A stretch of DNA of 64,000 bases from Candidatus Spongiihabitans sp. (GCF_965237845.1 NZ_OZ250154.1:259121-323120); one strand, 5' to 3'. Positions 4,243 to 23,859 are shown, counted from the first letter of the stretch. The notes: generated from the letters alone by a model not told the origin. A program made the numbers and translations.

Positions 4243-5826
4243 ATGAACGCATATGCAACCCACGCCGACGACCACCACGATCATCACGGCCCCGCGCCCG
4301 GCCTGATGCGCTGGGTCACCACCACCAACCACAAAGATATTGGAACCCTGTACTTGTGGTTCGCATTTATTATGTTCTTCATCGGCGGCTTCATGGCGCT
4401 GATTATCCGCGCCGAATTATTTCAGCCCGGCCTGCAAATCGTGGATCCGCATTTCTTCAATCAGATGACCACGCTGCATGCATTGGTCATGATTTTCGGC
4501 GTGGTCATGCCGGCCTTCGTCGGGCTGGCGAACTGGATGCTGCCGATAATGGTGGGCGCGCCGGACATGGCGCTGCCGCGCATGAACAACTGGAGTTTCT
4601 GGATCCTGCCATTTGGGTTTGCGATGATGCTTTCCACTCTGTTTATGGAGGGCGGCGCGCCGGCGGCCGGCTGGACTTTGTATCCGCCATTGTCATTGCA
4701 AACCGGCAATGCCTTACCGTTTATAATTTTCTCGATTCACCTGCTTGGGATTTCATCCATCATGGGCGCGATCAATATTATCGCCACCATCATGAACCTG
4801 CGCGCCCCGGGCATGACTTTTATGAAAATGCCGCTGTTTGTTTGGACCTGGTTCATCACCGCTTATTTACTGATCGCGGTAATGCCGGTATTGGCTGGCG
4901 CGGTGACCATGTTGCTAACGGATAAATTTTTCGGCACCAGTTTTTTCGACGCGGCCGGCGGCGGCGACCCGGTGATGTTCCAGCATATTTTCTGGTTCTT
5001 CGGCCATCCTGAAGTCTATATCTTGATTCTGCCGTCATTCGGCCTGGTGTCCGAAATCATCCCGACCTTCTCGCGCAAAAGATTGTTTGGCTATAGCTCA
5101 ATGGTCTATGCCACCGCGTCCATCGCCTTTTTGTCGTTCATTGTTTGGGCGCATCATATGTTCACCGTGGGCATGCCGTTGGCCGGGGAGTTGTTCTTCA
5201 TGTTTTCCACCATGCTGATCGCGGTGCCTACCGGCGTGAAAGTGTTTAACTGGGTATCCACGATGTGGCGCGGGTCGCTGACGTTTGAGACACCGATGCT
5301 GTTCGCCTTGGGTTTTGTGGTGATGTTCACCATCGGCGGTTTCTCCGGGTTGATGCTGGCCATGACCCCTATCGACTTCCAATACCACGACACCTATTTT
5401 GTCGTGGCGCACTTCCACTACGTACTGGTGCCGGGCGCGGTTTTCGGGATTGTCGGCGGTGTTTATTATTGGCTGCCTAAGTGGACCGGCAACCGCTATA
5501 ACGAAGGATTGGGCAAATGGCATTTTTGGCTATCGACCATTTTCGTAAACATCCTGTTCTTCCCGATGCATTTCGTCGGACTCGCTGGAATGCCGCGCCG
5601 CATCCCGGATTACGCCGTCCAATTTACGGATTTCAACCAGATTGCGACCATCGGCGCATTCGGTTTTGGCTTCTCGCAAATCTTGTTCTTGATCTTGGTT
5701 GTGAAATGCATCCGCGGCGGCGAGAAGGCCGCCGACCAGGTTTGGGAAGGCGCCCACGGTTTGGAGTGGACCTTAAGTTCGCCGCCGCCGTACCATACTT
5801 TTTCCGTGCAGCCGATGATTAAATAA
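4243..5826 (+). CDS. ctaD: Cytochrome c oxidase subunit I
   Basis: 527-aa 12-TM heme-copper oxidase. Motifs: WFFGHPEVY (CuB His and cross-linked Tyr), AHHMF, HFHYV. Confidence 0.95.
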   Translation: MNAYATHADDHHDHHGPAPGLMRWVTTTNHKDIGTLYLWFAFIMFFIGGFMALIIRAELFQPGLQIVDPHFFNQMTTLHALVMIFGVVMPAFVGLANWMLPIMVGAPDMALPRMNNWSFWILPFGFAMMLSTLFMEGGAPAAGWTLYPPLSLQTGNALPFIIFSIHLLGISSIMGAINIIATIMNLRAPGMTFMKMPLFVWTWFITAYLLIAVMPVLAGAVTMLLTDKFFGTSFFDAAGGGDPVMFQHIFWFFGHPEVYILILPSFGLVSEIIPTFSRKRLFGYSSMVYATASIAFLSFIVWAHHMFTVGMPLAGELFFMFSTMLIAVPTGVKVFNWVSTMWRGSLTFETPMLFALGFVVMFTIGGFSGLMLAMTPIDFQYHDTYFVVAHFHYVLVPGAVFGIVGGVYYWLPKWTGNRYNEGLGKWHFWLSTIFVNILFFPMHFVGLAGMPRRIPDYAVQFTDFNQIATIGAFGFGFSQILFLILVVKCIRGGEKAADQVWEGAHGLEWTLSSPPPYHTFSVQPMIK

Positions 5827-7769: not shown

Positions 7770-8549
7770 ATGATCACGGATTCCGAAAAAAAACCAATTG
7801 AAAATGGGGTTAAACGCCGGATTATTAAACCCGGGATTATTAAACATGCCGTCATGGTTGTCTATCTATTGGGGTTGTCGTTATTGCTGGGATTAGGCGG
7901 TTGGCAGATCGGCAGGGGCCTGGAAAAAAACCAGGTTGAGAAAGCCATTTCTGAACGGCAAAATCAGCCCATAGTCATAAAAAAACAGCCTGAAAGCTGG
8001 GGCGACATAAAGTACAAAATGGTGCAACTGGATGGAAATTGGTTGGCGGGAAAAACATTTTTGCTGGACAATCGCGTCTATCAGGGGAAAACAGGTTATG
8101 AATTGTTGAATCCCATTCAGCTGAGTGGCGATGGCAGTGCAGTGCTTGTCAATCTCGGCTGGGTTGAAAAGCAACGGGTTAAGGAGGTCATGTCAATCAA
8201 TGCCAGGTTAATCAGCAATGACTCGGTTGAGTCAGAAAAAGTGACCGGCCAACTGTATTTGCCGGACAAAGGGTTTACCCTGGGAGCGGCCTATACAAAT
8301 GAAACTTCATGGCCAAAAATAATCCAGTATTTCGATCAGGCGGCGTTGTCAAAAGCACTGGGGGTTGATCTAGGTCCGGCAGTCGTTGTTTTGGACTCAA
8401 GCCCAAGTCGAGGCTTAATAAAAATCTGGTCGCCCTATGTGGTCAACGCATCTCGCCATTTCGGATATGCTTTTCAATGGTGGGGATTAGCGTTGACATT
8501 GATAATTTTCGGTATTATATGGCGGCGCAACAGTAATAGCCAATTTTGA
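7770..8549 (+). CDS. SURF1-family cytochrome oxidase biogenesis protein
   Basis: 259 aa with TM helices at both ends flanking a periplasmic domain. The C-terminal RHFGYAFQWWGLAL is typical of SURF1/Shy1. Confidence 0.8.
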   Translation: MITDSEKKPIENGVKRRIIKPGIIKHAVMVVYLLGLSLLLGLGGWQIGRGLEKNQVEKAISERQNQPIVIKKQPESWGDIKYKMVQLDGNWLAGKTFLLDNRVYQGKTGYELLNPIQLSGDGSAVLVNLGWVEKQRVKEVMSINARLISNDSVESEKVTGQLYLPDKGFTLGAAYTNETSWPKIIQYFDQAALSKALGVDLGPAVVVLDSSPSRGLIKIWSPYVVNASRHFGYAFQWWGLALTLIIFGIIWRRNSNSQF

Positions 8550-8563
8550 TATGATGGCTTGAT

Positions 8564-9214
8564 ATGACAGACAAAAACAAAAACGCTGGAGGCGCTGATT
8601 TTGGAAACACGGATTTGTGGCGTTCAAGGTTAAAACTAATTTTCATTTTTTTCCTGTTTCTTGGGCCGCTGTTGGTTGCATTCTTTTGGTACTACGGCTT
8701 AGGCGCCATATTGTTGCCGAAAGGGAAATCCAATCATGCTCCGCTGGTCAATCCGGTGGTCACTTTAACCCCATTCGAAAATAGTCTGTTCAACCACGGG
8801 CGCATTTCATCAGGAAGAATTTCACTTGAGTCGTTAAAACATAAATGGACCATCGTGCACTTGCTCAATTCCAACTGTGAGGCACAATGCCAAAAGTCCC
8901 TCTATAACACACGCCAAACGCGTATCGCCCTGGGCAAAGGCGCCGTGCGCGTGCAGCGCTATGTGGTTATCAATGACTCTGTATTGGCCGATGAAATTCA
9001 GCAACGCCACGCAGATGTTGTGCTGGTGAATCAATCCGGGGAAGGGCTGCAAAAACAATTGCAGCGGATTATTGAGCAACATAATATTGGCAGTGATGAT
9101 GCGCTATTAATTGACCCGGTGGGAAACGTAATGATGGTGATTCCCGTGGATCTGGATCCAAGGCTGTTGCTCAAAGACCTGAAGAAACTGCTTAAAGTGT
9201 CACGGATAGGTTGA
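8564..9214 (+). CDS. Membrane-anchored hypothetical protein, possibly SCO/thioredoxin-like
   Basis: 216 aa with an N-terminal TM helix and a CxxxC motif (NSNCEAQCQ) reminiscent of SCO/SenC copper chaperones. It ends the cox cluster. The assignment is tentative. Confidence 0.4.
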
Positions 9215-9272
9215 TAGAATAGACCTGTGCAAGCCCACAGCAATTTTATTTGGTGAAAAATCGCGCAATAAT

Positions 9273-10673
9273 ATGAATCAAAAAAAACCATGGGGAGGGC
9301 GCTTTTTAAGCGCCACCAATCGCCTGATGGAACAATTTTCCGCATCAGTTGGTTTCGACTGCCGATTATATCGACACGACATTGCTGGATCAATTGCCCA
9401 TGCGCGTATGCTCAGCCGCCAAGGTATTATTACTCAAATGGACTTTGATTCCATTGCAAAAGGATTGTTGGAAATCCAAGCTGAAATAGAAAACAACACC
9501 TTTGAATGGCGCGAAGGGCTTGAAGATGTTCACATGAATATTGAAGCGGCATTAACCTCAAGAATTGGCGAGGCCGGTAAAAAACTGCATACCGGGCGCT
9601 CGCGCAACGATCAGGTTGCCACCGACATGCGTTTATTTCTGAGGCAAGCGCTGGATGGGATATGCTTGCAATTGACCGAATTGCAACATGCGTTAATCAG
9701 ATTGGCCGAGCATGAGGCGGAAACTATCCTGCCCGGTTATACGCATATGCAGGCCGCTCAGCCGGTGATTTTGGGGCATCATATTCTGGCCTGGAACGAA
9801 ATGCTGCAACGTGATTTCGAACGGTTTCAGCAATGCAGGCAAAGGATAAATATTTGTCCGCTGGGCAGTGCGGCGCTGGCTGGCACCAGTTACCCCATAG
9901 ATCGGGAAATGACCGCCCAGGAACTCGGTTTCGAGGGTGTTAGTTTGAATTCGCTGGATGCGGTATCGGATCGTGATTTCATTATTGAATTTACCGCCCA
10001 TGCCGCACTGGCCATGATTCACTTATCGCGGGTCTCGGAAGAGTTGGTGCTGTGGTCATCCGATGCCTTTGGATTCGTAGATTTGGGCGACCAGTTTTGC
10101 ACCGGTTCGAGCATCATGCCACAGAAAAAAAATCCCGACGTTGCCGAGCTGACCCGAGGAAAAAGCGGGCGAGTTTGCGGTGATTTGATGTCGCTGTTAA
10201 TGTTAATGAAAGGGCAACCCCTAGCCTATAACCGAGATAATCAGGAAGATAAAGAGCCCCTGTTTGATACCGTCGATACGCTGCAACTCTGTTTGGGTGT
10301 TTTTTCGGCGATGTTTCCTGGGGTGAAATTTAACCGCGATAGAATGAATGCGGTGGCTGAAAAAGGATATTCCACGGCAACGGATTTGGCGGATTATCTG
10401 GCAAGGAAAAACATTCCGTTTCGGGATGCCCATGAAGTTGTTGGTAAGGTTGTCGGTTATGCCGTTGAACAAAGTGTGGCCTTGCCAGATATAGCGTTAA
10501 GTCAATTGCAAAAGTATTGCGCGGTGATTGAGCAAGATGTTTATGCTGTGTTGGACTTGCAGGGCTCGGTCAATGCGCGCGATCATATGGGCGGAACAGC
10601 GCCAAAACGGGTTAGGCAGGCGGCCGCGGCCGCACGAAAATTACTCGATGCAAGAAAGTCCAATTCAGGATAA
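9273..10673 (+). CDS. argH: Argininosuccinate lyase
   Basis: 466 aa with the fumarate-lyase signature [15 protein letters not shown] and N-terminal WGGRF. Confidence 0.95.
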
Positions 10674-10701
10674 AATCACAGGCGGATTCATCTCGGCCCA
10701 A

Positions 10702-10731
10702 GATATAAGCAATGACGATATAAGCAATGAC
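10702..10731 (+). repeat. Perfect 15-nt tandem duplication (gatataagcaatgac x2) in the argH-lptM spacer
   Basis: Read directly: 10702-10716 is identical to 10717-10731. Confidence 0.9.
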
Positions 10732-10778
10732 CAACCAAATATCCGCATCCCTAAGAATGTGATCCCCAAAAGGTATCA

Positions 10779-10943
10779 ATGAGAAGCGCCCTAATCTTGG
10801 TGATGGCGAGTTTTATGTTGTTGTCTGCTTGCGGGCAGAAAGGCCCGTTGTATTTGACCGAAGACCAAATTAGTGCAGAGCAGACTGAGCAAAAACAACA
10901 ACAAAAACAACAGAAACAACAAGGAGAAAAGACGACGGATTAG
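10779..10943 (+). CDS. lptM: Small lipoprotein LptM/YifL-like
   Basis: This 54-codon ORF is absent from the track. It has the lipobox LLSAC followed by GQKGPLYL, the signature of the small lipoprotein usually found just upstream of lysA/dapF. The Gln/Lys-rich tail is encoded by low-complexity caa/aaa sequence. Confidence 0.6.
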   Translation: MRSALILVMASFMLLSACGQKGPLYLTEDQISAEQTEQKQQQKQQKQQGEKTTD

Positions 10944-11040
10944 ATTATCGTTTTTAAGCATTAGATTCATTTTTCGGACGGCTGCGTAACCTCGCCACCT
11001 CAGTTTTCTAACCCAGTTTTCTAAACCATTCCAACCTCAA

Positions 11041-12294
11041 ATGGATTATTTCGAGTATAAAAACAGGCGGTTATTTGCCGAGCAAGTCGCCCTTGGCGAT
11101 ATTGCAGAACAAGTCGGCACGCCTTGTTTCGTATACTCCCGCGCAACCCTGGAAAGACATTGGAATGCATTCAACAATGCATTCGGCGACTATCCCCATC
11201 AAATTTGTTATGCGGTAAAAGCAAACGGCAATCTTGCTATCCTGAACTTACTCGCCAGATTAGGCTCTGGTTTTGATATTGTCTCTGCGGGGGAACTTAT
11301 GCGTGTTATGGAATCTGGCGGGGATCCAGCGAAGACAATTTTTTCTGGTGTGTGTAAACAGAGTTGGGAGATTCGCAATGCGCTGGAAGCAGGGATTCAT
11401 TGTTTTAACATCGAATCCGAAGGCGAGTTGCAACGCATCAGTGCGATTGCCGGGGAATCAGGCGTGCAGCCGCGGATATCGATACGGATAAATCCGGACG
11501 TGGATGCAAAAACCCACCCGTATATATCCACCGGTCTGCGGGAAAACAAATTCGGCTTGTCTCCCGCCCAAGCGCTGGAAATCTATACACAAGCATCTAA
11601 AGACAAAAATATTCAAATCCACGGCGTTGCCTGCCACATTGGCTCTCAGTTGACGGATTTATCGCCTTTCAAAGCCGCGTTGAACCGCACCTTGTATTTT
11701 GTTGGCCAACTTGAGCGCATTGGGATTGCAATCAGCCATCTTGATTTCGGTGGTGGATTGGGGGTGAGATACCGTGATGAACAGCCTCCCAGCCCCGATG
11801 AATACGGGCAAATGCTGCTTGACCAACTTAAACCCCGAGCCCGGCAAATTCCGGTTGTCATCGAACCCGGGCGGGCGATTATCGCCAATGCAGGAATTTT
11901 GCTAACCAGGGTGCATTATATCAAGAAAAGCGATGCCTCAAATTTTTGTATCGTTGACGCAGGAATGAACGATTTAATTCGGCCCGCGTTATATCAGGCG
12001 TATCAGGAAATAGTTGAAGTGGATAAAACCGGCAAAGTCGATCCCGATGTCTATGATGTCGTCGGGCCAGTTTGCGAAAGCAGCGATTTTCTGGGCACGC
12101 AACGACGATTAAGTGTTGCTGAGGACGATTTACTTGCGGTCAGAACCACGGGTGCTTATGCTGCGGTGATGAGTTCAAATTACAATGCCCGTCCGCGACC
12201 CGCTGAAGTCATGGTTGATGGCGATAAATTTCATGTTATTAAACCACGCGAAACTGTGGAATCACTCTATCAGGGAGAACAAATTCTGCCTTAG
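11041..12294 (+). CDS. lysA: Diaminopimelate decarboxylase
   Basis: 417 aa with the PLP lysine motif YAVKAN, plus EPGRAI and CESSD motifs. Confidence 0.95.
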   Translation: MDYFEYKNRRLFAEQVALGDIAEQVGTPCFVYSRATLERHWNAFNNAFGDYPHQICYAVKANGNLAILNLLARLGSGFDIVSAGELMRVMESGGDPAKTIFSGVCKQSWEIRNALEAGIHCFNIESEGELQRISAIAGESGVQPRISIRINPDVDAKTHPYISTGLRENKFGLSPAQALEIYTQASKDKNIQIHGVACHIGSQLTDLSPFKAALNRTLYFVGQLERIGIAISHLDFGGGLGVRYRDEQPPSPDEYGQMLLDQLKPRARQIPVVIEPGRAIIANAGILLTRVHYIKKSDASNFCIVDAGMNDLIRPALYQAYQEIVEVDKTGKVDPDVYDVVGPVCESSDFLGTQRRLSVAEDDLLAVRTTGAYAAVMSSNYNARPRPAEVMVDGDKFHVIKPRETVESLYQGEQILP

Positions 12295-12306
12295 CGTTGC
12301 GCTCGA

Positions 12307-13242
12307 TTACTGATTGGTGATGCCGCTGGGGACATGCCCGGTTGGGACGTGTTGGCGCGCAGATTCGCAATGACCGCGTTGATCGTCGAAGAAAATATCG
12401 GCATCGAAGGTGCGTAAAAACTCGCCTTTATCCATGCCGCCCAGAAAAAAGCTTTCATCAATCCTGATATTCCAGGCGCGCAGGGTTTTAATGACTCGTT
12501 CATGGGCGGGTGCGCCGCGGGCGGTAATCAAGGCCGTGCGAATAGGCGATTGCGGGTGGTTTTGTTGAATCCGGTGCAGCGCAGCCAATACATTCTTAAA
12601 CGGTCCTCCGAGCAAGGGCTGGTTGGCCGCTTGTTTTTCGGTTTCGCTGAATGCCGCAAGCCCTTGATTTTGAAACACCTGTTCTGCTTCATCCGAAAAC
12701 AAAACCGCATCGCCGTCAAACGCAATTTTCAGTTTGCCGGAATCCCGGTTATCCATCTGCGACGGCAAAATGGTGGCGGCGGCGCAGCCGGCGTCCAGAG
12801 CTTGACTGACGTCTGTCGGGTCAGCAGATAAAAATAAATCCGCATCAAATGGTTTGACGTACCGATACGGCGACCGCCCGCCGGTAAATACCGCGCGGGT
12901 GATATTCAGACCGTAGTGCTCAATGGAATTAAATACCCGCAAGCCGGTGTCGGCGCTGTTTCTGGAAATCAACACGATCTCGACATGCTGTCCGGCACGG
13001 TTATTTTCCAGCGCATTATGATTGTTGGCATCGTCGGTATCCGGTGTATCGTTCAGCGCCAAAAACTTTTTCACCATAGGGAAAGCCACGCCGGGATTCA
13101 GGGTTTCATTTTCGTGATCGATTTGATATTGGCAATAGGCATCGACACCCTGCCCGGTATAGACCGCATGACTTTCGGCCATATCGAACAGGGCGCGCGA
13201 TGAGATGGCGATTACCAGAGAATTTTCAAACGATTGCGCCAT
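12307..13242 (-). CDS. 5'-nucleotidase-like HAD-type hydrolase
   Basis: 311 aa. It resembles the bacterial cN-IA-like 5'-nucleotidase family as I remember it (IAISSRALFDM... and KIAFDGDAVLFSDE). Confidence 0.55.
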   Translation of the reverse strand: MAQSFENSLVIAISSRALFDMAESHAVYTGQGVDAYCQYQIDHENETLNPGVAFPMVKKFLALNDTPDTDDANNHNALENNRAGQHVEIVLISRNSADTGLRVFNSIEHYGLNITRAVFTGGRSPYRYVKPFDADLFLSADPTDVSQALDAGCAAATILPSQMDNRDSGKLKIAFDGDAVLFSDEAEQVFQNQGLAAFSETEKQAANQPLLGGPFKNVLAALHRIQQNHPQSPIRTALITARGAPAHERVIKTLRAWNIRIDESFFLGGMDKGEFLRTFDADIFFDDQRGHCESARQHVPTGHVPSGITNQ

Positions 13243-13257
13243 GTTCAGACCTGATGT

Positions 13258-14109
13258 TCAGAATCGACGTAGCGCATCAATGACCGACCGACTGTGCGGG
13301 CGTTTCTGGTGCCACACATAAAACGATTCAGCCGCTTGTTCGACCAGCATCCCCAATCCATCGTGCACCTGGGCGGCGCCATGTGCCAGCGCCCAATTCA
13401 TAAATATCGTAGGTTGTGCGCCATACATCATGTCATAGACCAGCGTGTTTTCAGAAACACACTTTTCGCTGAGCCCCGGTAGCTGCCCCTCCAGGCTGGT
13501 TGCGGTGCCATTTACAATTAAATCAAAAGACCTGTCAACCGCTTGATCGAGTCCCACCCCGTGCACCTCATTGCCGAACCTTTCACTCAATGCGGTTGCT
13601 TTATTAACCGTGCGGTTGGCGATGGTTATGCCTTTCGGCTGGCACGCCAATAGCGACCCAATCACCCCGCGCGCCGCGCCACCGGCGCCGACCACCAGAA
13701 CCGATTTATCCTGAATGGAAAAACCAATGTTGTTTTGCAGATCGGCCACCAATCCTGCGCCGTCGGTATTGTCGCCAAATACGCCACCCTGTTTTTCAAA
13801 TCGAAGTGTATTTACAGCCTGCGCCTGGCTTGCCCTGTGGCTAAGGGTATTTTGCCCTTGTTGACAAAACTGCCAAGCCTCAACTTTGTAAGGTACAGTA
13901 ATATTCAACCCGGCCCCGCCGCAAGCTGAAAAATGGCTAACCGCTTGATAAAAACCACCCACATCTACCTGAATCCGGTCATAGTCTATCGCAATACCGC
14001 ATTGTTGCGCAAATAAACTATGGATCTGCGGCGACTTGCTGTGTTGCACTGGATTGCCCATCACGGCGAAACTGGACGACTTTAATTTGAAGTCAAATAA
14101 ATCGGTCAT
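13258..14109 (-). CDS. aroE: Shikimate dehydrogenase
   Basis: 283 aa. Motifs: NPVQHSKSP, NTDG and the NADP-binding VVGAGGAARGV. Confidence 0.9.
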   Translation of the reverse strand: MTDLFDFKLKSSSFAVMGNPVQHSKSPQIHSLFAQQCGIAIDYDRIQVDVGGFYQAVSHFSACGGAGLNITVPYKVEAWQFCQQGQNTLSHRASQAQAVNTLRFEKQGGVFGDNTDGAGLVADLQNNIGFSIQDKSVLVVGAGGAARGVIGSLLACQPKGITIANRTVNKATALSERFGNEVHGVGLDQAVDRSFDLIVNGTATSLEGQLPGLSEKCVSENTLVYDMMYGAQPTIFMNWALAHGAAQVHDGLGMLVEQAAESFYVWHQKRPHSRSVIDALRRF

Positions 14110-14187
14110 GATAATCGGGCATGATAAAGAATGTTGCTAAAGGAAGTTTCCAATAATATTTTCTGGATATTTTCCGGCTCAACCCTA

Positions 14188-14802
14188 TCACACTTCCTCA
14201 AACAGGATAAAAACCGGGCCGTCGCAGTCAATGCAAATGGTGCCAGCACCCACATTACTCAAGCCCAAAGAGCTCAAAGGCATAAATTTGGTGGTTTGCG
14301 GACAAGGATAGCGGCAATCGCCGGTTATGCCGACCCGTGTTTGTTCGACTACCGAAACGCTAAAGCCGCCGATGCGCTCGAACCGCCATTGCCCGGAGGA
14401 ATAGCCAACAATATCATTGTCAAATTTAATCGTCGTCGGAGATTTTCTGGCGCGCAAGAAATGATGCGATTCGCCGATATTGAATAATTCATGATCGCGT
14501 CGTCCACCGAGAAATCCGATTAAATTCACTTCGCCGAAATGTTCAGGAATATGGCCAAGGGCAAAAGCCAGGTCAGAAAAATCCTTGCTTGGATTCAGCG
14601 GAACATCGATCATGCCTTCAAAAGAATCACCATCCCCTACCGAAATGCCTTCTCCCGATTTTCGCAAGCGCGCGCCGCGGTCCACGAAGATTACAGGTTC
14701 TTCAATACCCTGAACATTGTCATGGACATTTTCATAAAAAGGCCCCACCAACGTAATGTGCAGGCTGTTTTTGAAGTTGCTTAGATATTTTTCGATGGTC
14801 AT
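14188..14802 (-). CDS. Thiamine pyrophosphokinase-like protein
   Basis: 204 aa. GDGDSF, SKDFSDL and GGRRDHEL match the TPK catalytic pattern GDxDS...KDxTD...GGRxDH. Confidence 0.5.
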   Translation of the reverse strand: MTIEKYLSNFKNSLHITLVGPFYENVHDNVQGIEEPVIFVDRGARLRKSGEGISVGDGDSFEGMIDVPLNPSKDFSDLAFALGHIPEHFGEVNLIGFLGGRRDHELFNIGESHHFLRARKSPTTIKFDNDIVGYSSGQWRFERIGGFSVSVVEQTRVGITGDCRYPCPQTTKFMPLSSLGLSNVGAGTICIDCDGPVFILFEEV

Positions 14803-14863
14803 TGAAGCGGTGAAAATTTAGAACGACAGGGCCGTATTCGGTTAAGCGCTCGGTTAAGCAATA

Positions 14864-15811
14864 CTATAGACATCGGGCAGGTAAATTAAAAGGGCATGCA
14901 AAAGCCGGCAGCACAAAGAGAGCGCTGGGCCGACAAGCGGAGCGCCTGATGATCGTTGAAAACAATAGTGATAAGTCATCGGGCCGATAACCACTCCAAC
15001 GGGCCACCAATCTCTGCCTGAAATAACAGATCATTCTGCCATCGGCGCCGCTGGTTGCCGATTTACCCCATGATTTACCCCAAGGCGCAACACCGTGCAT
15101 AGCTAAACGGTGGACAACAAACGCTTGGCCGGGTTTTACCGCGATCTCCACTCGTTTACAGGTGGCGAATACATTTTTACGGGTGCGTTGATAAATCTCG
15201 GTAACATCTTCGTCGCCCCACTTGTCCGGCGCCAGGCCCTTAAAGCGTGTGCCGAATGCCGTGCGGACAATTTCATGAGATTTCTCCCAGACAACAAACG
15301 GCGAAGCATCCGCGCTGAAATCAACCAGCGGAATGCCCAGAATAAAACCATGATGCTCGCGCAGATGGCGGCGCCGAGCGGTGCCTTCAGCGCGCAAGCC
15401 ATCGACATGGGCGGCATCGCAGTCACGGCGATACCGAAAGGCGGCGCTGGATTCCGATTCCATCGGCTGAGGATAACCCGGGTAGCATACCGAGATCTGC
15501 CCGCGGTCCAGATCGAAATTTGACAGCCCCAGGCAATGTCGAATAAATTCCACCGCAGCGCCTTGCAGTGGTGCGCAGTCGCCTAGCGCGCCAGAAGCCG
15601 AGTTTGGCAGTACGTTCACGCCAGCGAACCAGGTACCGCCACAACGCAACCATTGTGCGTTTTCCTGTTTGCTAACCGCTTCACGCGCTTCAGGCAACGC
15701 GCATTTAACCCATTCGGCGAGCGCGCCGTCGTATTTGAATTTGCGCCAGCCTTGTTTAAAAAATGATTCAGCGTTCATAACGACAACCCCGCGCAAACCC
15801 TGGACGGTCAT
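14864..15811 (-). CDS. Hypothetical protein, possible 2-His-1-carboxylate (cupin/2OG-oxygenase-like) enzyme
   Basis: AAHVDG and a later HRLAMHG could form an HxD...H triad. The likely real start is ATG 15775 (MNAESFF). The last ~50 residues look like low-quality read-through. Confidence 0.4.
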   Translation of the reverse strand: MTVQGLRGVVVMNAESFFKQGWRKFKYDGALAEWVKCALPEAREAVSKQENAQWLRCGGTWFAGVNVLPNSASGALGDCAPLQGAAVEFIRHCLGLSNFDLDRGQISVCYPGYPQPMESESSAAFRYRRDCDAAHVDGLRAEGTARRRHLREHHGFILGIPLVDFSADASPFVVWEKSHEIVRTAFGTRFKGLAPDKWGDEDVTEIYQRTRKNVFATCKRVEIAVKPGQAFVVHRLAMHGVAPWGKSWGKSATSGADGRMICYFRQRLVARWSGYRPDDLSLLFSTIIRRSACRPSALFVLPAFACPFNLPARCL

Positions 15812-15856
15812 TTCAACTGAGTGGATTGAGAGTTGATAATGGGGTCTGTTGAAAAT

Positions 15857-18814
15857 CTATGCGACGCGGAAAATATCTCCAGGTTGTTCGGTCCAATAGC
15901 GACGGTATTGCCCGGAAGCTTTTTGGGGGTCGTTGAACATGAAAAGCTTCACCTGGACCCCAGCCTTGCCGTGGCGGAAAAAACGGGGTTTTTCATCCTC
16001 TTCAAACAGCTCTTTGTAACCGTCTATTCTGCGCTCGGCGGCAGTGTATTCGGTTCCCTTCGGATCCACAAACACGATACGGTATTCATTTCCCTTACAC
16101 ATCCAGAAAACAAAATCAGGCAGAAAACGGCGGTAATCGTTGTTACCTCTATCATAGTAAGGAATGTGAACATCGTCCAAGGACTCGTCTATTTTGCTGA
16201 ACATCCAAGCATCCCACGGTACCTTGTTTCTCTCCACCCATTTTTCCAGTGCATTAAGAAAACTGACCTCGCTATTGACTTTGATTATATGCTGTATGTA
16301 ATCGGTTGTCTCGTTCCCCAGAAGCACGGGAAAGTAATAGTGTTGAGCAACCCTTTTGATCGTCAGCTCCCTGAAAGTCTCTTCATTTTTTCCTGAAGAC
16401 TTCTTAGTAAACTCTTCCCGCGTTATCTCACCCAGTCCAAGTTGCTGACCTAATTTGCTTATCTCTCCATCGGACACCTCACCTTGCCTGACCCGGTTAA
16501 GTCTTTCTTTAAGATCGTTGACGTATTCAGAATGGACACGAATATGACGGAAGTGAACAATATCTTTTTTGCCAAGCGCCCGAACGCCATCAGACACCTT
16601 TGCCGTTTTAGAAAGGTGGGATATAAGACGGTGTTGCAAAAAAGGAATCATCGCATAGTTCTTTTCCGGGGTGAGTTGTATTTTCTCCGTATTTTTTACC
16701 ATGCTGCGCAATGCAGCAATCTGGGATGTTTTAAGCCCATCTCGAACTGCAAACACTGCATCGGATGTTGTTTCCATATAACTTTTGAGTCTGTTCAGGG
16801 TTTTCTCGCTCATGGCGAATTTTCCTTGTGCGGCTGCGCCATCTTTCGCTTCTTTGTATTCGGGAACCAGCAACGGCATATTTTTATTGCCGATTTTCGG
16901 TATTGGCGCCCTTTCAAAACCTTCCAGGATTTCAAAGTCTCCACTTTCTCCATATTCCGCCGCCAACCCTTCCAGCACCGCCTTGACGGCACTTCGGTTG
17001 GTCGCAAAAAGAAACAAGGTTTCCAGCGGCTGTACCTGGTCGTGATAAGGCTGAATGGCCTTTTTCTCATTACTCTCAGGCAAACGGGCAAACCGGCGGC
17101 GTTGATTGGGCAACGGCTCTATCCGTACGCCTCGCCCGACCGACTGCACCACAAACTTCTTGGCGTCTTTCCCGCCGATGTTGATGAAGTTGATCACGTT
17201 GGGGCGGTTGGAATCCCAACTTTCAAAGAATGATCGCGAGCCCATCAGGATGGTTATTCGGCTTTTCTCCAAGCCCTCAAAAAACGATTTCCCTTGCAAT
17301 GCGGTTGTTTCTTCAAATCCATCGAGCAATATATTGCGCCATTTGGATGTATCGCCGATGCGTATCAAGGCAAAAGGCGAGTCGGCGTTTTTTAATTGAA
17401 ACGCCAGTTCCTTGTTATCTTCGCTGCGGATGAATTGCAATGCTCCCTTTGCGCGGCTCAGAAAAACCGCTTCGCGCAAATCGGTTATTTTCATTTTGCC
17501 GATGACATCTTCATCGGTTCCAATAATTCCAGCGCCATTCCCGCCGAAAAGAAGCCTTGCGTTTCTCCAATTATCCATCAATTCGGTTTTCGCCTCTTTG
17601 AAAAGCGATTGGTCAATCTCTCCAGTGGCAATTTCGCGCAAGGTTTGAAAAAACGCCCACAAATCATTCTGGTCGTTTTCAATGTCGGTATTGACGGAAT
17701 TAACCAAGGTCAGCATCAGCGGCAGATGGTAAAGGTTTTCCAACCCCGTGCCGATGCGAAGCGCCTTGACCCGCATAGATACATAAGCCAGCGTGATAAG
17801 CGACTTCAGGACAATTTTTCGTCTTTCCGCGTGGCTGATTTCCTCTTTCCTGTTTTTGAATGCGTTGTACTCGGTTTCATTCAAGTAAATGTTTTTGCCA
17901 TGTCCGTTTTTTACAAACTCTTCCAAATTGTATTTTTTAACGGTCGTTATGATGTCCTCTTTATCGGTAAAAGTTGCGGAGAAGTTAAACAGAAAACCCT
18001 CGCGCGCCATAATCGCGTAATACGCCTGCCGTTTGGAATCCTCCTTGCTGCCCTTGTGTGCCTCATCCAGCAGGATGAACCATTTGCCTCCGTTTTCATA
18101 TGTGCGATAATCAATCAACGCCTCTTTCTGAACATCGGAAATGTTGTCGCTGCGGTGGTAATAAACCACTATCGAATCGCCGACCCTGTGCTGATACGAC
18201 CCCCTGCCCGCTTGACGCAAAGGAACCAAATCTATTTGCAATCCGCTACTTCGGTTGAATTCGTCAATGGTGCGGCGTATCTGCCCAATCAAGCCACCGC
18301 TGCTCGGAGCGAGGATAAGAATGTTATGCGGTGGAATTTCGCCATGTTGCTGCAAATGACGCAAGTATTCAATCAATTTAACCATCACCAACGTCTTGCC
18401 GCTTCCGGTGGCCATCCAAAAGCACATTCGGTTTATCAGGTTGGCATATGGGATTAAATCGCCCAATGGGCGCATGAACTCCGACAATAGGCGAAATACT
18501 TGGCTTTCCCTCTTGTTCTTTTCATCGGCACGGGTTTCGTATTTTTTAAGATACGCAGACAAGCTGGAATCTCTGTATAAATCCATGAAAAACCTTTTGC
18601 GTTCATTGCTTGTCTCCTGGGTTTCACCGGAAAACCAATCATGATCTTTCCCATAATAAAGATAAAACGCGCGCGCGGCTTTTTCCAAAGCGTCTGTTTG
18701 GTAGCCGTATAGGGTTTTTTCGGAAGAAAACCGGTGAATATCAGGCACGCGCCAAGTTTCGGGGAGGTCTCCGTAGTTCAGGGATTCGCTGATAAGTTCA
18801 AGATGTGTTTGCAT
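15857..18814 (-). CDS. res: Type III restriction enzyme Res-like subunit (SF2 DEAH helicase with C-terminal PD-DxK nuclease)
   Basis: 985 aa. Helicase motifs: I ATGSGKT, Ia ILILAPS, II LLDEAHKG, III NFSAT, VI QSVGRGVR. The C-terminal nuclease motif is LPDFVFW...IVFVDPKG. It is the last gene of the mod operon and its start overlaps the previous ORF by 17 nt. Confidence 0.8.
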   Translation of the reverse strand: MQTHLELISESLNYGDLPETWRVPDIHRFSSEKTLYGYQTDALEKAARAFYLYYGKDHDWFSGETQETSNERKRFFMDLYRDSSLSAYLKKYETRADEKNKRESQVFRLLSEFMRPLGDLIPYANLINRMCFWMATGSGKTLVMVKLIEYLRHLQQHGEIPPHNILILAPSSGGLIGQIRRTIDEFNRSSGLQIDLVPLRQAGRGSYQHRVGDSIVVYYHRSDNISDVQKEALIDYRTYENGGKWFILLDEAHKGSKEDSKRQAYYAIMAREGFLFNFSATFTDKEDIITTVKKYNLEEFVKNGHGKNIYLNETEYNAFKNRKEEISHAERRKIVLKSLITLAYVSMRVKALRIGTGLENLYHLPLMLTLVNSVNTDIENDQNDLWAFFQTLREIATGEIDQSLFKEAKTELMDNWRNARLLFGGNGAGIIGTDEDVIGKMKITDLREAVFLSRAKGALQFIRSEDNKELAFQLKNADSPFALIRIGDTSKWRNILLDGFEETTALQGKSFFEGLEKSRITILMGSRSFFESWDSNRPNVINFINIGGKDAKKFVVQSVGRGVRIEPLPNQRRRFARLPESNEKKAIQPYHDQVQPLETLFLFATNRSAVKAVLEGLAAEYGESGDFEILEGFERAPIPKIGNKNMPLLVPEYKEAKDGAAAQGKFAMSEKTLNRLKSYMETTSDAVFAVRDGLKTSQIAALRSMVKNTEKIQLTPEKNYAMIPFLQHRLISHLSKTAKVSDGVRALGKKDIVHFRHIRVHSEYVNDLKERLNRVRQGEVSDGEISKLGQQLGLGEITREEFTKKSSGKNEETFRELTIKRVAQHYYFPVLLGNETTDYIQHIIKVNSEVSFLNALEKWVERNKVPWDAWMFSKIDESLDDVHIPYYDRGNNDYRRFLPDFVFWMCKGNEYRIVFVDPKGTEYTAAERRIDGYKELFEEDEKPRFFRHGKAGVQVKLFMFNDPQKASGQYRRYWTEQPGDIFRVA

Positions 18815-19361
18815 TTGCTGACAGTTTTTTAGCCAAAATCTCGGATGGTATTATTTCAACATCGCCTACCACTTTCTTTGTTAATACTCCGCGCAAATCA
18901 TCAAGCAGGTAGCTAGCCAAATATTCAACAACCCCTCTTGTTTCCTCTGCGTCTACACCATCTATAACAAGCCAAAAATCATGCTTTTTATCTTTCATGC
19001 GTTTTGCAGCATCCTTGCATTTTGCAGCTAAACGACACAGAACAAGCAAACTTCCATATACTTTCACGTAATTTTCTTGTCTAACATTTTTAACAACACA
19101 ATCCTTCTTGTCATCATCATTAAGATATGAATATTGTTCTTCAATGGCTTTAATAGTATCCGCCAAACGAGTTTCTTCGACAACAAAAATTTTGTTATCA
19201 TTAATAAAAAAATAATCGCAACAGTTGCAGCTTCCCAAACCCACATCTGCCCTCATATCGGGCATCTCTACCGATTTTGTTGTGTTATCCATACGAAAAA
19301 CATCAACTTCTTTCCCGTTCGAGTCTGGTCTTACTTCCCGAAATTGACCAAGAAATGTCAT
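18798..19361 (-). CDS. 187-aa orphan protein, unknown family (possible degenerate PD-(D/E)xK fold)
   Basis: AAGGGG lies 5 nt upstream of its ATG, which has an ATGA overlap with the ATPase stop. The ORF is very AT-rich. The only motif-like feature is CDYFFINDNKIFVVEETR (D...ExR). It has no HNH or Toprim signatures. Confidence 0.6.
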   Translation of the reverse strand: MTFLGQFREVRPDSNGKEVDVFRMDNTTKSVEMPDMRADVGLGSCNCCDYFFINDNKIFVVEETRLADTIKAIEEQYSYLNDDDKKDCVVKNVRQENYVKVYGSLLVLCRLAAKCKDAAKRMKDKKHDFWLVIDGVDAEETRGVVEYLASYLLDDLRGVLTKKVVGDVEIIPSEILAKKLSANANTS

Positions 19362-20746
19362 AAAAGCCCCTTGATATACAAATCAGAAAACGGTTTTGTC
19401 AGTTCCTGCTTTATCCTTGCCAATTTAATGTCAAAATCGCTCTCACCATCTATAACTCCTTGATGTGAAAAATGATTTAATGCCACCAATTCCTCATATT
19501 CTGGATTTTTCTTTACTGCCACTTCAAGGAATTTAAGAATATCGGCACTGTGGGTGGCGATGACAACGTTAACGCCGCCTTTCGCCAATTCAAACAGGGT
19601 TTCAGCCATAACGACCTGCCACCCCGGGTGCAGATGCGCTTCCGGTTCGTCAATGAAAATAAAGGAATCCTCGTCCAGCACCTTGCGCTCAATCAACAGC
19701 GCCAAAACACCGAGGTTGGCAACTCCCATGGCGGTTACGGGCAAAGAGAAACTACGGCCATTTTCCTGGAATGATAAATCGCCGCTTTCGGAAAGTGCGA
19801 TTTTTCCGCCGAGAATATTCTCGCCAGTCAATTTTTCATATACATCCGGGAAAGCCATATCACCGGTGTATTGATACTTGAGCGCGCTTGCCAGATCATA
19901 AAAATATCCCGGAATCCCACTGATTCGTTCTCTGCTGCTATGCAGGTGCCTCGGAGATAGGCGAATGTCCTCCAAAGCGTTTTTTAATTTCCAGTAAACA
20001 GGGGATTCCAGATAAATCACTTTGGAATATTGTTGTAATTCCTGCAATCCAAACCGAGGTATGCTGAACTCAATTTCTCCATTTGAGAATTCAAATTTTC
20101 CAAGATAATCACTCACAACTTCCGATGACCGGTCTTCTTTGCCTCTCAGATCGGAAAGCTTTGGCACTTGAAAATTTTGAATCAGATTCTCTTTAATTTT
20201 ATATGCTATCCCGGAAACAATAAATTCTTTCGCATTTTTGTCGCTGAGTTCTTCTTGCAACTTGGTCAAAGATTGTTCCTCACCCTTCAAAGTATCTTTC
20301 ATTAAGGAACGGGAACCGTCCAGATCCGGCGATGCCATAGATTCCAGTTCTAAAATCAGTTTAGAGAGAGTTGCCTGTATCTCTTTCGCCTTGTTAGCAA
20401 GATCAGGCATGATTTTGTCCAACTGTTTAAAGTCTCCGATTGGGGAATCTATGATCATATCTTGCAACACTCTAATTCTCTCGTATAGCGGAAATAGCGA
20501 CACTCTTTCCCCCTCTGAATCCTCCAAATCTTTTAGATTACCAATACTATGTAAAAGATGTGCGGTGAGATTATTTATATGCTCCTTAGCATGATTCGCA
20601 TTCATCGAGTTAAAAAGCGAATACAAAACCTTAGAAACAAAACTTTTGCCGGTGTTATTCGGTCCGGCGAACACAGTGAATTGCCCGATGCGAATTTTCG
20701 CATCGGCAAGTTTGCCGATATTCTTGATTTTCAGTTCAAAAGCCAT
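19358..20746 (-). CDS. ABC/SMC-like AAA15/AAA21-family ATPase
   Basis: 462 aa. Motifs: Walker A GPNNTGKS, Walker B/D-loop FIFIDEPEAHLHP, H-loop IATHS. A coiled-coil-like insertion rich in E/K/L lies between the two halves. An AGGGGA SD lies 6 nt upstream of the ATG. Confidence 0.8.
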   Translation of the reverse strand: MAFELKIKNIGKLADAKIRIGQFTVFAGPNNTGKSFVSKVLYSLFNSMNANHAKEHINNLTAHLLHSIGNLKDLEDSEGERVSLFPLYERIRVLQDMIIDSPIGDFKQLDKIMPDLANKAKEIQATLSKLILELESMASPDLDGSRSLMKDTLKGEEQSLTKLQEELSDKNAKEFIVSGIAYKIKENLIQNFQVPKLSDLRGKEDRSSEVVSDYLGKFEFSNGEIEFSIPRFGLQELQQYSKVIYLESPVYWKLKNALEDIRLSPRHLHSSRERISGIPGYFYDLASALKYQYTGDMAFPDVYEKLTGENILGGKIALSESGDLSFQENGRSFSLPVTAMGVANLGVLALLIERKVLDEDSFIFIDEPEAHLHPGWQVVMAETLFELAKGGVNVVIATHSADILKFLEVAVKKNPEYEELVALNHFSHQGVIDGESDFDIKLARIKQELTKPFSDLYIKGLL

Positions 20747-20782: not shown

Positions 20783-23401
20783 TCACTCCCCCCACCACAA
20801 GTAGGGCTTGATTAGGGATATGAAATGCCGCTTTTCCTGCTCCGTCATTTTTGTCGTATCTATTTTTTCAATGCTCCCGTCCTCAAAGGTTACCGTGTCC
20901 GCGGTGCGATGGCGGATTTGTTTGCCGAGGATGTTGGAGAGTGATTCGGCGATGTCTATGTCGGGGTAGAGGTTGTGCAGGTTGATTTTTAGTTTGCCGT
21001 TTTTCAGGGGTTTGACGGCGTGGGCGAGTTTGTCATCGCCGAAGAAGACATATTGTTCAAACGGCGATTTCGCGCTGTCCAGTTCCAACTGTTCGCCGTC
21101 CTCGTAGCGGGCGTTTTTCAGGGATTCTTCGTATTGTTCCAGCGTGTAGTATTTGAGGCAGTGGCTGCTGCCCTCGCGGGAAACGGGCTTGCCGTCTTTC
21201 CAGTCTTTGGAATAGACAACTTTTTTTATCCGTGGAAGCAGAACCGTATGGAAGTACTCTCCCATTTCAATAAGCAGATATTTTCGCTCTCCGCCATCTT
21301 CACGGTTTAGATTTATTACTGCATGAGCAGTGGTACCGGAGCCGGCGAAGTAGTCGAGAATATTCCCCGAACCAGACTCCGCCCCAGAGCCTATCAGTCC
21401 GGTATAGAAAAAAACCGAGTGGCAGTACGGGAAATTCTTCAGTCCCAATTTATCAAGGTCTGACTTGCCTCGTCTAGCATCTGGCATAACAGAACTTATC
21501 TGATACTTTGAACCATCCTCTAAAATCCGCTTTTGCCTTGGTTGAGTGGTTTCATCTGAGCCGAAAAGAATCTCTCCTTTATCAATCATTTTTTGAAGGG
21601 TTTCAGGGGTGCGAGAAAAACCATTTGGCGGAACAGCGCATGGTTTGCCAGTAACAGGATGTATCAGCGGGATAAAGAATTTTTTGTCTGTTCGTGGTTC
21701 TGGCGCCCTGAGACTAACGTCACGATAAACTAATCCCTCGTCATCTAAGAAACGGCAAGCTTGCTCACCCCCACTTAATTTGGAATTTCTAGAAACCCAT
21801 TCGGCATATTGTTTTTTTGCTGTGTCAGTAACGCCATCGTTTCGCTTAATAATTGCTTCTGCTTTTGCCAGCATGATTTTGATATTTTTACTTTGAGCAT
21901 TGAAGGTTTGATCTGTCTTCATTCTGAAGATTACATACTCGTGTTGCTTTGCTATACCGCTGCCTCCAGTCATAGGATTCCTCTTATCCCAAATCACAGT
22001 CCCGGCATTCAGCAAGCCGCTATTATCCATAAGCAAATGCAGTCTCTCGTATTCATTTTCATCAATATGGCACAAAAATGATCCGTCATCCGAGAGCCAC
22101 CCCAAAGAACAGTGAACACGATTGTCCATCATCGTCAGCCAACTGGAATGTTTGTAATCATTACGATAAAGAAAGCCGCTGGTTTTCGTATTGTATGGTG
22201 GGTCAATGTGAATACACTTCACCTTCTCCCTATAACGCTTTTGCAAACTATTCAACGCCTGCCAATTCTCGCTATGCACCAACTCCCCGTCCAGCACTTC
22301 ATCCAAGTTACCCAAGCAACCAAGAATATCCAATTCCAAATCCTTGAAATGCGCGGTATCAAGCGGCAGAAATTGACACTCGCCGCTTGCGCCGTTTTTG
22401 TCGGCCAGACTTTTCTGTCCGTTGAAAATCGCGGTCATTGAAAACTGATTATCCACCATCCCCAACTCGCGCCATTCTTTTATCTGCGCTTTTGCCCCTT
22501 GATGTTTTATTATCTTGTTCAGAACCCCGTCCGCCAGTTTGTCCAACGTGACGACATAATTGACATTACGCACAAACTTCGGCTTCTCCCATACCCGACA
22601 AAGTTCATCTTCAAACTGCGCGATGAAGTCAATGATGTTATAGGCGGTGTCCTTGATCGCCTGAATCTGCCGAATTCTTTTTTCCTCGAAGACGGTTTCT
22701 TCCTGAAAAATGTATTGATACACCCACAAGTCAAACTGCTCGTGCAAAAAGCCTCTTGCGTCTTTGTTGATGAAAAAGTTGGCTTCGGTCTGCCGCTGGA
22801 ATACACCGATGGCTTTTTGCAATTCATCCTTGGACAGCGGGATTCTTTCTTTTCGGCATTGTTTGAGAATTTCATCGGCCCTGGTTTTAGCGCCGTTTTT
22901 GGAATACGAAACCTTGAAGTGAATAACCCATCCTTTCGGCGATCTTTTCACTTCGTCAAAGGCAAAAACGAATTCTTTCCGCTCGTTATTTTTCTTGTGC
23001 TCAACCTCGGAAGCGTCAAAATACAAAAGCCGAGTGTTTTGCGGCATTCCCTCTTCGTTCAACTCAACCGGCATGGAGCGCACCAGCACGTCGGATTTAA
23101 CGTAGTAAAGCATCTGCGTTTTCCACGACAGGGCGACATCCTGCCCATCGGCATACACGCGCTCGTAGGTTTTTGAGAAAGCTGGCAGGTGGCGGAAGTA
23201 GATCGAGCCGCTTTCGCAGAAGTAGCGGTTGAAGAAGGTATAGAGTTTGTCGAAAAGTTCTTCGCGGAATGAAGTCTGCCGTTCGGCGCGACGATCAATC
23301 TCCGCCATCAGTTGCGGGCGGATGGAACGAAAATAGGCGCGCTTCATCCGCATCAAATTAACAAAGCCGGAGTCGCCGTCCACTTCGGCGCCGGTGAACA
23401 T
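20783..23401 (-). CDS. mod: Type III-like Mod DNA methyltransferase (beta-class N6-adenine/N4-cytosine)
   Basis: 872 aa. Motif [11 protein letters not shown] lies ~290 residues upstream of motif [15 protein letters not shown], which is the beta-class order. The N-terminal extension is ~390 aa. There is no SD before ATG 23401, and the frame stays open 33 codons further upstream (stop at 23501-23503), so the start is uncertain. Confidence 0.8.
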
Positions 23402-23619: not shown

Positions 23620-23642
23620 ATTATCGGGTTGAGCCCGATAAT
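23620..23642. other. Perfect 9-bp inverted repeat (attatcggg / cccgataat) with a 5-nt loop
   Basis: Read directly in the 416-nt non-coding stretch at the right edge of island 1. Function unknown. Confidence 0.6.
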
Positions 23643-23859
23643 GATGGGCGCAGAGCGGAGCCGAGTCAATGCGCATTTTTGTTCAATAGCCGGCATGCGG
23701 TTTTGGCAATACGCTTTGATTACGATTTCCAAACAGGATAAACTGCAACCCAGCCTTATTTACCTGCATAAAATTAACGATTGAAATGAGTAGTTCGATT
23801 TACAAAATCAGTTCGTCTTGGTGCCATTTCCGAGTTGGCTTTTCGGGAAATTCGTGTTA

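Follow-up and report, generated by a model that had tools for sequence, protein, structure and literature searches.

A small AT-rich gene in a Type III-like restriction-modification operon of Candidatus Spongiihabitans: a putative nuclease partner of an OLD-type ABC ATPase

What is the function of a small, AT-rich gene set between an ATPase gene and the restriction gene of a Type III-like restriction-modification (RM) operon? The question is raised by a 187-residue open reading frame (ORF) in a stretch of 64,000 nucleotides from Candidatus Spongiihabitans sp. (GCF_965237845.1, NZ_OZ250154.1:259121-323120), the whole of which we call the window. A first-pass annotation, made from the sequence alone, had placed the ORF at 18798-19361, where we found it on the minus strand as the third of four co-oriented genes: mod, a gene for an ATP-binding cassette (ABC) ATPase, the small ORF and res. 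With a probability that we put at roughly 60%, the small ORF and the gene of the OLD-family ABC ATPase form an anti-phage module of two genes, in which the small ORF supplies the effector, a highly diverged nuclease of the restriction-endonuclease fold. The two genes and their junction are as follows (positions in the window):

18798..19361, minus strand: small ORF, 187 aa, putative restriction-endonuclease-fold effector partner of the ABC ATPase (ORF list, homologues, substitution rates, structure prediction, remote similarity to the defence protein HEC-02B)
19358..20746, minus strand: OLD-type ABC ATPase, 462 aa (Pfam AAA_15, 3e-19, and AAA_21, 3e-13; PADLOC; phrog_14430; motifs)
19358..19361, minus strand: ATGA, in which the stop codon of the ATPase (TGA) lies over the start codon of the small ORF (ATG) (sequence)

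The small gene and its ATPase partner

The ORF had been taken for an orphan, which it is not. A search of 5.8 billion proteins returned 95 homologues at 34-92% identity, every one of them unnamed or labelled 'hypothetical', and a profile search of 1.84 billion cluster representatives gave 273 family representatives at 50% clustering, nearly all 170-220 aa long. A scan of one genome per species located 70 loci of the small ORF. The median ratio of nonsynonymous to synonymous substitution rates (dN/dS) was 0.25 across 161 pairs with more than 70% identity. Given these homologues, representatives and substitution rates, the small ORF is a real, conserved gene under selection. Against the closest relative (locus L004) dN/dS was about 1, a value that rests on about a dozen substitutions in a segment 97-99% identical and is uninformative.

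Linkage to the ATPase is obligate. We used the four window proteins as queries against the six-frame ORFs of all 70 loci. In 68 of them the ATPase gene immediately precedes the small gene, and the two exceptions are truncated or degraded; the first-pass annotation had asked whether the gene always follows an ABC ATPase. In the window, an AAGGGG hexamer resembling a Shine-Dalgarno sequence lies 5 nt upstream of the small-ORF start, and the two genes are probably translationally coupled. In one protein of the representative library, P0100 (445 aa), the N-terminal half of the ATPase (residues 1-255, with Walker A) runs in frame into a complete small protein; this fusion could have arisen by deletion or could reflect an error of assembly.

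The ATPase belongs to the OLD-type ABC clade, with AAA_15/AAA_21 domains and intact Walker A (GPNNTGKS, G28-S35), Walker B (FIFIDEP, F362-P368) and H-loop (ATHS, residues 397-400) motifs. AAA_15 and AAA_21 are its only Pfam domains, and it has no effector domain of its own. Its top PADLOC match is HEC-02A, at 109 bits, followed by NsnB, PD-T4-4_A, PDC-M47A and AriA, all of them far below family level; the AriA, PtuA, GajA and Old models match it at 1e-10 to 1e-21. It also matches phrog_14430, a family of unknown function, over the full length at 260 bits, far above any PADLOC model.

The first-pass annotation had further called the ORF compositionally foreign, on the basis of G+C counts that proved exact: 26.7% at 19081-19140 and 33.3% at 19141-19200, compared with 56.7% at 4561-4620. 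At 37.2% GC (29% at third codon positions), the ORF indeed lies below the window mean of 49.3% (standard deviation 3.9% over 564-nt segments) and below its operon neighbours, the ATPase at 42% and Mod and Res at 47%. The ten 564-nt segments of lowest GC in the 64 kb are all within the small ORF, and 0.4% of segments are equally low. The description 'extremely AT-rich' is thus correct in that the ORF has the lowest GC in the window, but 'extremely' is too strong a word for 37%. Both cassette genes lie about 10 GC points under their flanks on average, and do so in 66 of 68 loci; AT-richness is therefore a trait of the mobile cassette, not of the window genome. Together, low GC and a patchy distribution across phyla indicate horizontal spread.

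Almost all of the loci come from metagenome-assembled genomes (MAGs), of sponge symbionts judging by the MAG names, and they cover at least 8 phyla. The hosts include Latescibacterota, Poriferihabitaceae, Porifericomitaceae, Arenicellales, Nitrospira/Nitrospirales, Gemmatimonadetes, Terriglobia, Dehalococcoidia, Thermodesulfobacteriota, Limisphaerales and Ca. Spongiihabitans thiooxidans, the last of which is mentioned in the literature in a sponge-symbiont context.

The candidate active site

What kind of protein the family encodes can be approached through its conserved residues and its AlphaFold2 (AF2) model, which was built with 75 homologues and reached a mean local confidence (pLDDT) of 88 and a global score (pTM) of 0.84. 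The relevant positions are:

19170..19229, minus strand: core motif, residues 45-64 (CNCCDYFFINDNKIFVVEET), a predicted β-hairpin (conservation; AF2 strands 50-54 and 57-64)
19215-19217, minus strand: codon of D49, at the hairpin start
19176-19178, minus strand: codon of E62, near the hairpin end
19029..19076, minus strand: helix motif, residues 96-111 (ENYVKVYGSLLVLCRL), which carries K100 (codon 19062-19064) and Y102 (conservation)
19287..19289, minus strand: codon of D25, in an invariant YRMD motif just after the N-terminal hairpin (conservation)

The first-pass annotation had singled out the peptide GSCNCCDYFFINDNKIFVVEETRLADTI (residues 43-70) as a possible degenerate PD-(D/E)xK core, with D and E in place and an R where the K should be. 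The peptide is present, and the model folds it into a β-hairpin with strands at 50-54 and 57-64. The D and E of that proposal correspond to D49 and E62, both conserved, which lie at the start of one predicted strand and near the end of the next, an arrangement known from cores of the restriction-endonuclease fold. In a wide alignment of 66 diverse members, reaching down to 20-30% identity, D25 and K100 are invariant, and conservation reaches 90% or more at C48, D49, Y50, E62 and Y102; in close homologues D49 and E62 are invariant as well. Position 63 is E or D. Two residues after E62, where the canonical lysine would be, there is a conserved Thr, T64. The idea that R replaces K had to be given up: R65 varies freely (R/H/Q/N/K/D/E), and the lysine that never varies, K100, sits in the helix after the hairpin. 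The proposed core is thus partly supported, by the conserved D49/E62 hairpin and by the remote similarity to HEC-02B described below, but with K100 and not R65 as its lysine.

The candidate active site is therefore likely to consist of D49 and E62 on the hairpin and K100 on the next helix, possibly joined by D25, which the conservation of the YRMD motif marks as a candidate extra acidic residue. Four charged residues kept at 20-30% identity are typical of a catalytic site, and with D25 and K100 invariant and D49 and E62 on a predicted hairpin the small protein looks like an enzyme. The remainder of the protein had been described as helical, which holds in part; the model also contains two more β-strands (126-133 and 165-172) and the N-terminal hairpin. 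The order of its secondary-structure elements is compatible with an αβββαβ core, for which Foldseek gave matches of restriction-endonuclease/XPF type below threshold only.

The two motifs also contain cysteines, and a cluster of C45, C47, C48 and C109 that binds zinc or an iron-sulphur centre would make the small protein a redox or metal sensor instead. In closer homologues all four are conserved to 90% or more, and weak zf-C2H2_ZFHX3 matches were found with Pfam in 17 members (best E = 0.5). However, such Cys-rich matches are far below threshold, and in the wider family only C48 is kept at 90% or above, the positions of C45, C47 and C109 often being P, S, V, I or L. As three of the four cysteines are lost in distant members, we rejected an obligatory four-cysteine metal or iron-sulphur site, and we regard a sensor of this kind as highly improbable.

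Relation to HEC-02 and other ATPase-nuclease modules

We next consider which known system the pair resembles. HEC-02 (Hma-embedded candidate 02; Payne et al.) combines an ABC ATPase, HEC-02A, with a NERD-like PD-(D/E)xK protein, HEC-02B; it is found in Hma systems, and phage defence has been reported for it (bioRxiv 10.1101/2024.01.29.577857). A profile-profile comparison of the small family with an alignment of 41 HEC-02B proteins, made with hhalign, scored 29.7 (P = 6e-4) over 128 collinear columns. Reversed-sequence controls scored 14-15, and 200 block shuffles gave a mean of 15.0 (standard deviation 2.9, maximum 25.8), none of the 200 reaching 29.7. The alignment pairs D49 with D39, E62 with E52 and K100 with K86, three residues that are invariant in HEC-02B, and it places K-V-Y-G-S-L-L-V-L of the small family over K-V-T-D-S-L-L-M-L of HEC-02B, where K86 lies in the helix 'DKVTDSLLML'. 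Remote homology between the small family and HEC-02B is probable on these comparisons, though short of proof. Because the position two residues after the E is mostly Arg in HEC-02B, the helix-borne lysine appears to be a trait common to the two families.

The likeness extends to the layout of the genes. In both systems two adjacent co-oriented genes encode the ATPase and then a partner of about 180 aa, and both have been found embedded in larger defence systems. Each partner family keeps an invariant D, E and helix K (D49 and E62 among close homologues), and they have a 'K-V-x-x-S-L-L-h-L' helix in common. The differences are equally plain: neither window protein reaches the level of the HEC-02 family; the window ATPase is about 120 aa longer (462 compared with roughly 350 aa) and has a long charged insert; the window partner has Thr at the E+2 position and an extra N-terminal YRMD motif; the host system is Type III RM and not Hma or BREX; and the window family is confined to MAGs with sponge-symbiont names. 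On the Polaromonas plasmid pPNAP01 (L077, 1-3535), the BREX-2 gene pglX is directly followed by a bona fide HEC-02 pair, a further case of embedding.

Several results weigh against a nuclease module of this kind. The hhalign probability for HEC-02B is just 28%, under the usual bar of 90%. The 109-bit match of the ATPase to HEC-02A covers profile positions 65-299 of 338, compared with full-length matches of 386-416 bits for true members, and the small protein gave no PADLOC match to the HEC-02B model at E-values up to 1, where true members score 237-283 bits. No usable match to the small protein was found among the models of Pfam, PADLOC, NCBIfam and PHROGs, including HEC-02B, PD-T4-4_B, PDC-M47B and Pfam NERD; the best sub-threshold matches were NCBIfam SaoD (E = 0.1) and phrog_35728 (E = 0.01). 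Foldseek found nothing significant either, with a best E of 0.08 and a template-modelling score of at most 0.38 against the PDB and a best E of 0.03 against BFVD. The conserved Thr at the place of the canonical lysine means that the site could be non-catalytic. Finally, the small-protein family was absent from the plasmids and phages searched with tblastn and from IMG/VR viral contigs; for the ATPase, a single weak match was found in the phage collection.

Two of these negatives can be read against controls. A Pfam scan of 75 members at E-values up to 10 returned scattered noise only, without NERD (PF08378), but bona fide HEC-02B proteins are likewise without any Pfam match, so that the scan for NERD has little power. 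The model of a control protein with a textbook D...E-x-K motif, the PD-T4-4_B-like PDC-M47B (pLDDT 88), reached a best Foldseek E of 0.1, with FokI and MunI among its weak matches. As this positive control also finds nothing significant, the silence of Foldseek is no argument against a restriction-endonuclease fold. For the small protein, the sub-threshold lists contain Zip2-Spo16, MUS81-EME1, Nt.BspD6I and phage endonucleases, including VRR-NUC and Vsr types. The structural check thus came out mixed: the conserved residues map to the proposed D and E, and a significant nuclease match did not emerge. A sequence-profile search of the PDB returned a bZIP protein (MafB, E = 0.016) in a helical stretch, which we dismissed as spurious.

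Could the small protein be catalytically dead? It would then be an adaptor or sensor derived from a restriction endonuclease, with nucleic acid or a protein of the phage as its ligand and the ATPase under its control, and the effector would be the ATPase itself or an unlinked factor. The replacement of the E-x-K lysine by a conserved Thr and the lack of a significant structural match to active nucleases are what such a protein might display, and non-catalytic proteins of the restriction-endonuclease/XPF fold (Zip2-Spo16, EME1) are among its weak fold matches. Yet members at 20-30% identity keep D25, D49, E62 and K100 with little or no variation, and HEC-02B keeps the same D, E and helix K invariant with mostly R at its own E+2 position. 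The ATPase, moreover, has nothing beyond AAA_15 and AAA_21 with which to act as the effector. We consider a dead adaptor unlikely, though it deserves to be kept in mind.

Other pairs of an ABC ATPase and a small nuclease-like protein offer further comparisons. Plasmid-borne exemplars comprise PDC-M47 (Annamia), PD-T4-4 (E. albertii), HEC-02 (Pseudanabaena and Polaromonas) and unclassified pairs (B. cereus and K. pneumoniae), and in every one of them the ATPase is followed by a protein of 175-222 aa with a D...(D/E)-x-K/R hairpin motif. The unclassified pairs, on a 5.9-kb K. pneumoniae plasmid (L075, 1631-3596) and on a B. cereus plasmid (L072, 4007-6054), have no PADLOC or Pfam match; their partners carry D...E-x-K motifs ('LYLIEFKEG' and 'LDFIEIKG'), and they are apparently further unclassified sister families. 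PD-T4-4 has been classed with systems of a PD-(D/E)XK nuclease and a P-loop NTPase that form complexes (bioRxiv 10.1101/2025.07.10.664194). PD-T4-4 and PDC-M47 resemble the window pair in architecture, sizes (a partner of about 190 aa) and gene order, and a local motif, G-x-C-x-x-D-[YF]-hhh...hhh-I-E, is common to their partners and that of the window. They differ in that the window ATPase reaches 86 and 73 bits where true members reach 864 and 767, and in that PD-T4-4_B and PDC-M47B keep the canonical lysine of D/E-x-K and the window partner does not. Homology to PDC-M47B/PD-T4-4_B was rejected, with an hhalign probability of 4.7% over only 24 motif columns and no match to the B models. Compared as single sequences, the small protein and the partners from B. 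cereus and Annamia gave 9-11%.

Mechanistic data exist for only one such pair, WonAB (AWB73975.1 and AWB73976.1), from the WASA-1 prophage of Vibrio cholerae, in which an OLD-ABC ATPase and a variant PD-(D/E)xK nuclease are both required (PMC12137116); the same paper also contains operons of an 'OLD-ABC ATPase + novel REase'. The K71A substitution leaves WonB without activity. Mutations of the ATPase destabilise WonB, which disappears once WonA is inactive and is predicted to dock on a C-terminal extension of the dimerised WonA (PMC12137116). WonAB acts by abortive infection with a block of translation and not by bulk DNA degradation; WonB is toxic when over-produced, and WonAB is not a simple toxin-antitoxin pair (PMC12137116). 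The window pair resembles it, as judged from the description in that paper, in joining the genes of an OLD-ABC ATPase and a small protein, which in the window is a putative variant PD-(D/E)xK protein. Unlike the window partner, which has Thr, WonB keeps the catalytic lysine within the motif (K71), and WonAB is borne by a prophage whereas the window family is absent from the phage and viral collections searched.

More distant are PARIS (AriA/AriB), Septu (PtuA/PtuB), Gabija (GajA) and OLD, which have an ATPase of the same clade that serves as sensor or scaffold and controls a nuclease, but whose effectors have TOPRIM or HNH domains and no restriction-endonuclease-like fold, and are larger or fused to the ATPase. 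PrrC, as summarised in bioRxiv 10.1101/2024.01.29.577857, is an anticodon nuclease within the EcoprrI Type Ic RM locus. Like the putative abortive module of the window, it is based on an ABC-type ATPase and nested in a co-transcribed RM operon, and it offers a model for a backup that acts when RM is inhibited. PrrC is, however, a single polypeptide with its own anticodon-nuclease domain, physically dependent on the Type I enzyme; the window cassette has two genes, lies in a Type III-like system and occurs mostly without RM genes.

Taken together, we judge the pair to be probably a divergent module like HEC-02, WonAB and PD-T4-4, which would make it a previously unannotated family of a known kind of defence module. 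By analogy with those three, the ATPase would dimerise and bind the small protein, keeping it inactive, or stabilising it, until an infection cue. A phage cue would then switch on the small protein, as a PD-(D/E)xK, NERD-like enzyme, and this would cut DNA or else an RNA of the translation machinery, the kind of target put forward for several relatives, through a metal site formed by D49, E62 and K100 and possibly D25. Phage growth would stop and the infection would be aborted, probably at the cost of the cell. Fold, nuclease chemistry, trigger, binding of the two proteins to each other and protection against phage are all inferred in this scheme.

The surrounding operon and the mobility of the cassette

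Does the pair then work on its own, or as part of the RM operon in which it lies? The other features of that operon are:

20783..23401, minus strand: Mod, Type III-like DNA methyltransferase, 872 aa, first gene of the operon (PADLOC MTase_III, 1e-192; Pfam N6_N4_Mtase)
15857..18814, minus strand: Res, Type III-like restriction subunit, 985 aa, with a ResIII/DEAD helicase and a C-terminal PD...(V)DPK nuclease motif (Pfam ResIII, 2e-13; PADLOC REase_III)
18798..18814, minus strand: 3' end of the small ORF, running 17 nt into the start of res (ORF coordinates and sequence)
23641..23669, minus strand: sigma-70-like promoter match upstream of mod, a tentative operon promoter (consensus scan only, 9 of 12 positions)

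From mod to the end of res, the only terminator-like site on the minus strand lies inside mod (21754-21769), and we read the cassette as co-transcribed with mod and res in the window. The arrangement looks like the embedding of one defence system in another. It would provide co-expression, co-transfer and perhaps a second line of defence when RM is evaded or inhibited.

An orthologous Mod and/or Res flanks the pair in only about 12 of the 70 loci, and about 58 have no mod or res within 10 kb. Stand-alone pairs neighbour sulfatases, enolase-family enzymes, arginine-biosynthesis genes and similar housekeeping genes. As so few pairs lie between mod and res, the ATPase and the small protein form an autonomous cassette, independent of RM genes. 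A neighbour-joining tree of the ATPases places most RM-embedded pairs, including that of the window, in one clade, with stand-alone pairs interspersed. An AAA_14/DUF4143 ATPase gene adjoins stand-alone pairs in two otherwise unrelated contexts (L071, 10585-11739; L079-L081, 8903-10075).

This distribution led us to reject the idea that the pair serves the Type III-like RM enzyme in an accessory role, for instance as loader, specificity factor or second nuclease, and works only with Mod and Res. The four genes do lie on one strand with coupled or overlapping junctions, and the order mod-ATPase-small-res recurs in about 12 genomes of several phyla, the closest relatives included. The Res protein, on the other hand, has a C-terminal nuclease motif of its own ('LPDFVFW...IVFVDPKG'), kept in 11 orthologues, and the RM enzyme therefore needs no additional nuclease. 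With the variable contents of the gap between mod and res and the divergent histories of the small ORF and res, both described below, we hold such a subunit role to be very unlikely.

In relatives, the mod-res gap holds varied, unrelated cassettes of defence type (L006, L018, L020, L023, L025, L027, L035, L078). They include further AAA_15/21 ATPases (one with an OLD-type TOPRIM domain), SLFN AlbA_2 with HATPase_c_4, ParA-like AAA_31, Peptidase_M78/HTH with DUF4411, DUF4145, and HATPase_c_3 with a receiver-like protein. In every case with additional cassettes, the ATPase gene is immediately preceded by pieces of the mod 3' end and the small gene immediately followed by pieces of the res 5' end; such stubs occur in L003, L020, L035, L042 and L045 (at about 8000-8800) and in L018, L025, L026 and L035 (at about 10470-11550), and L025 has a chimeric ORF of res 5' and mod 3' sequence. 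Because these stubs separate the cassettes, the pattern suggests that cassettes were stacked by recombination between RM operons, within conserved mod and res frames. The mod-res gap would thus be a stacking site for exchangeable defence cassettes. Such company in the gap and the low GC of the pair together form a signature of defence type.

The window itself is a mosaic. It is syntenic with the LS_SOB contig of Ca. S. thiooxidans (L004), with about 90-95% nucleotide identity in the housekeeping flank (8813-15819). Within 15857-19201, the small ORF (18902-19201) is 97-99% identical and res 60-83%; the L004 contig ends inside the small ORF. On account of this difference in identity, the small ORF and res have separate histories, and a recombination breakpoint lies near their junction. 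Around 14.8-24.2 kb, a search for island boundaries (repeats, tRNA-like ends) gave nothing convincing. Elsewhere in the window, the 1-kb bin at 42001-43000 has 61% GC, compared with the mean of 49%.

Such mobility might also be that of a selfish, toxin-antitoxin-like addiction module that stabilises its host island and has no anti-phage role. Low GC and a patchy cross-phylum distribution, with the horizontal spread they indicate, would suit it, as would the toxicity of the over-produced WonAB nuclease (PMC12137116) and the Pfam name of AAA_21, which refers to a toxin-antitoxin toxin. But the family was not found on the plasmids, phages or viral contigs searched, its embedding in RM loci beside other defence cassettes points to defence, and its nearest characterised relatives protect against phages, WonAB not being a simple toxin-antitoxin pair (PMC12137116; bioRxiv 10.1101/2024.01.29.577857). 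An addiction module is, in our estimate, quite unlikely.

We return to the preferred reading, an anti-phage module whose effector is a diverged nuclease. One speculative extension of it, which we think doubtful, is an effector specific to sponge microbiomes with a rearranged active site (D-D-E plus the helix lysine, and no strand lysine), in which the long-insert ATPase may sense failure or inhibition of the Type III RM system. If true, RM and abortive infection would here form a functionally coupled unit, undescribed for Type III systems and possibly with a new substrate or trigger.

The more general value of these results is in annotation, and in a candidate for experiment; the preferred reading would not surprise a specialist. 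It provides a first functional hypothesis for a family of about 270 clusters, which neither Pfam nor PADLOC recognises and whose only annotation is 'hypothetical', and it would add a branch to the growing class of defence modules built from an ABC ATPase and a nuclease, with HEC-02, WonAB and PD-T4-4. The low GC seen everywhere, and a 97-99% identical copy beside a res of 60-83% identity, bear on how the family travels. With these, its near-exclusive occurrence in apparent sponge symbionts of many phyla points to the sharing of defence genes inside a single host-associated community.

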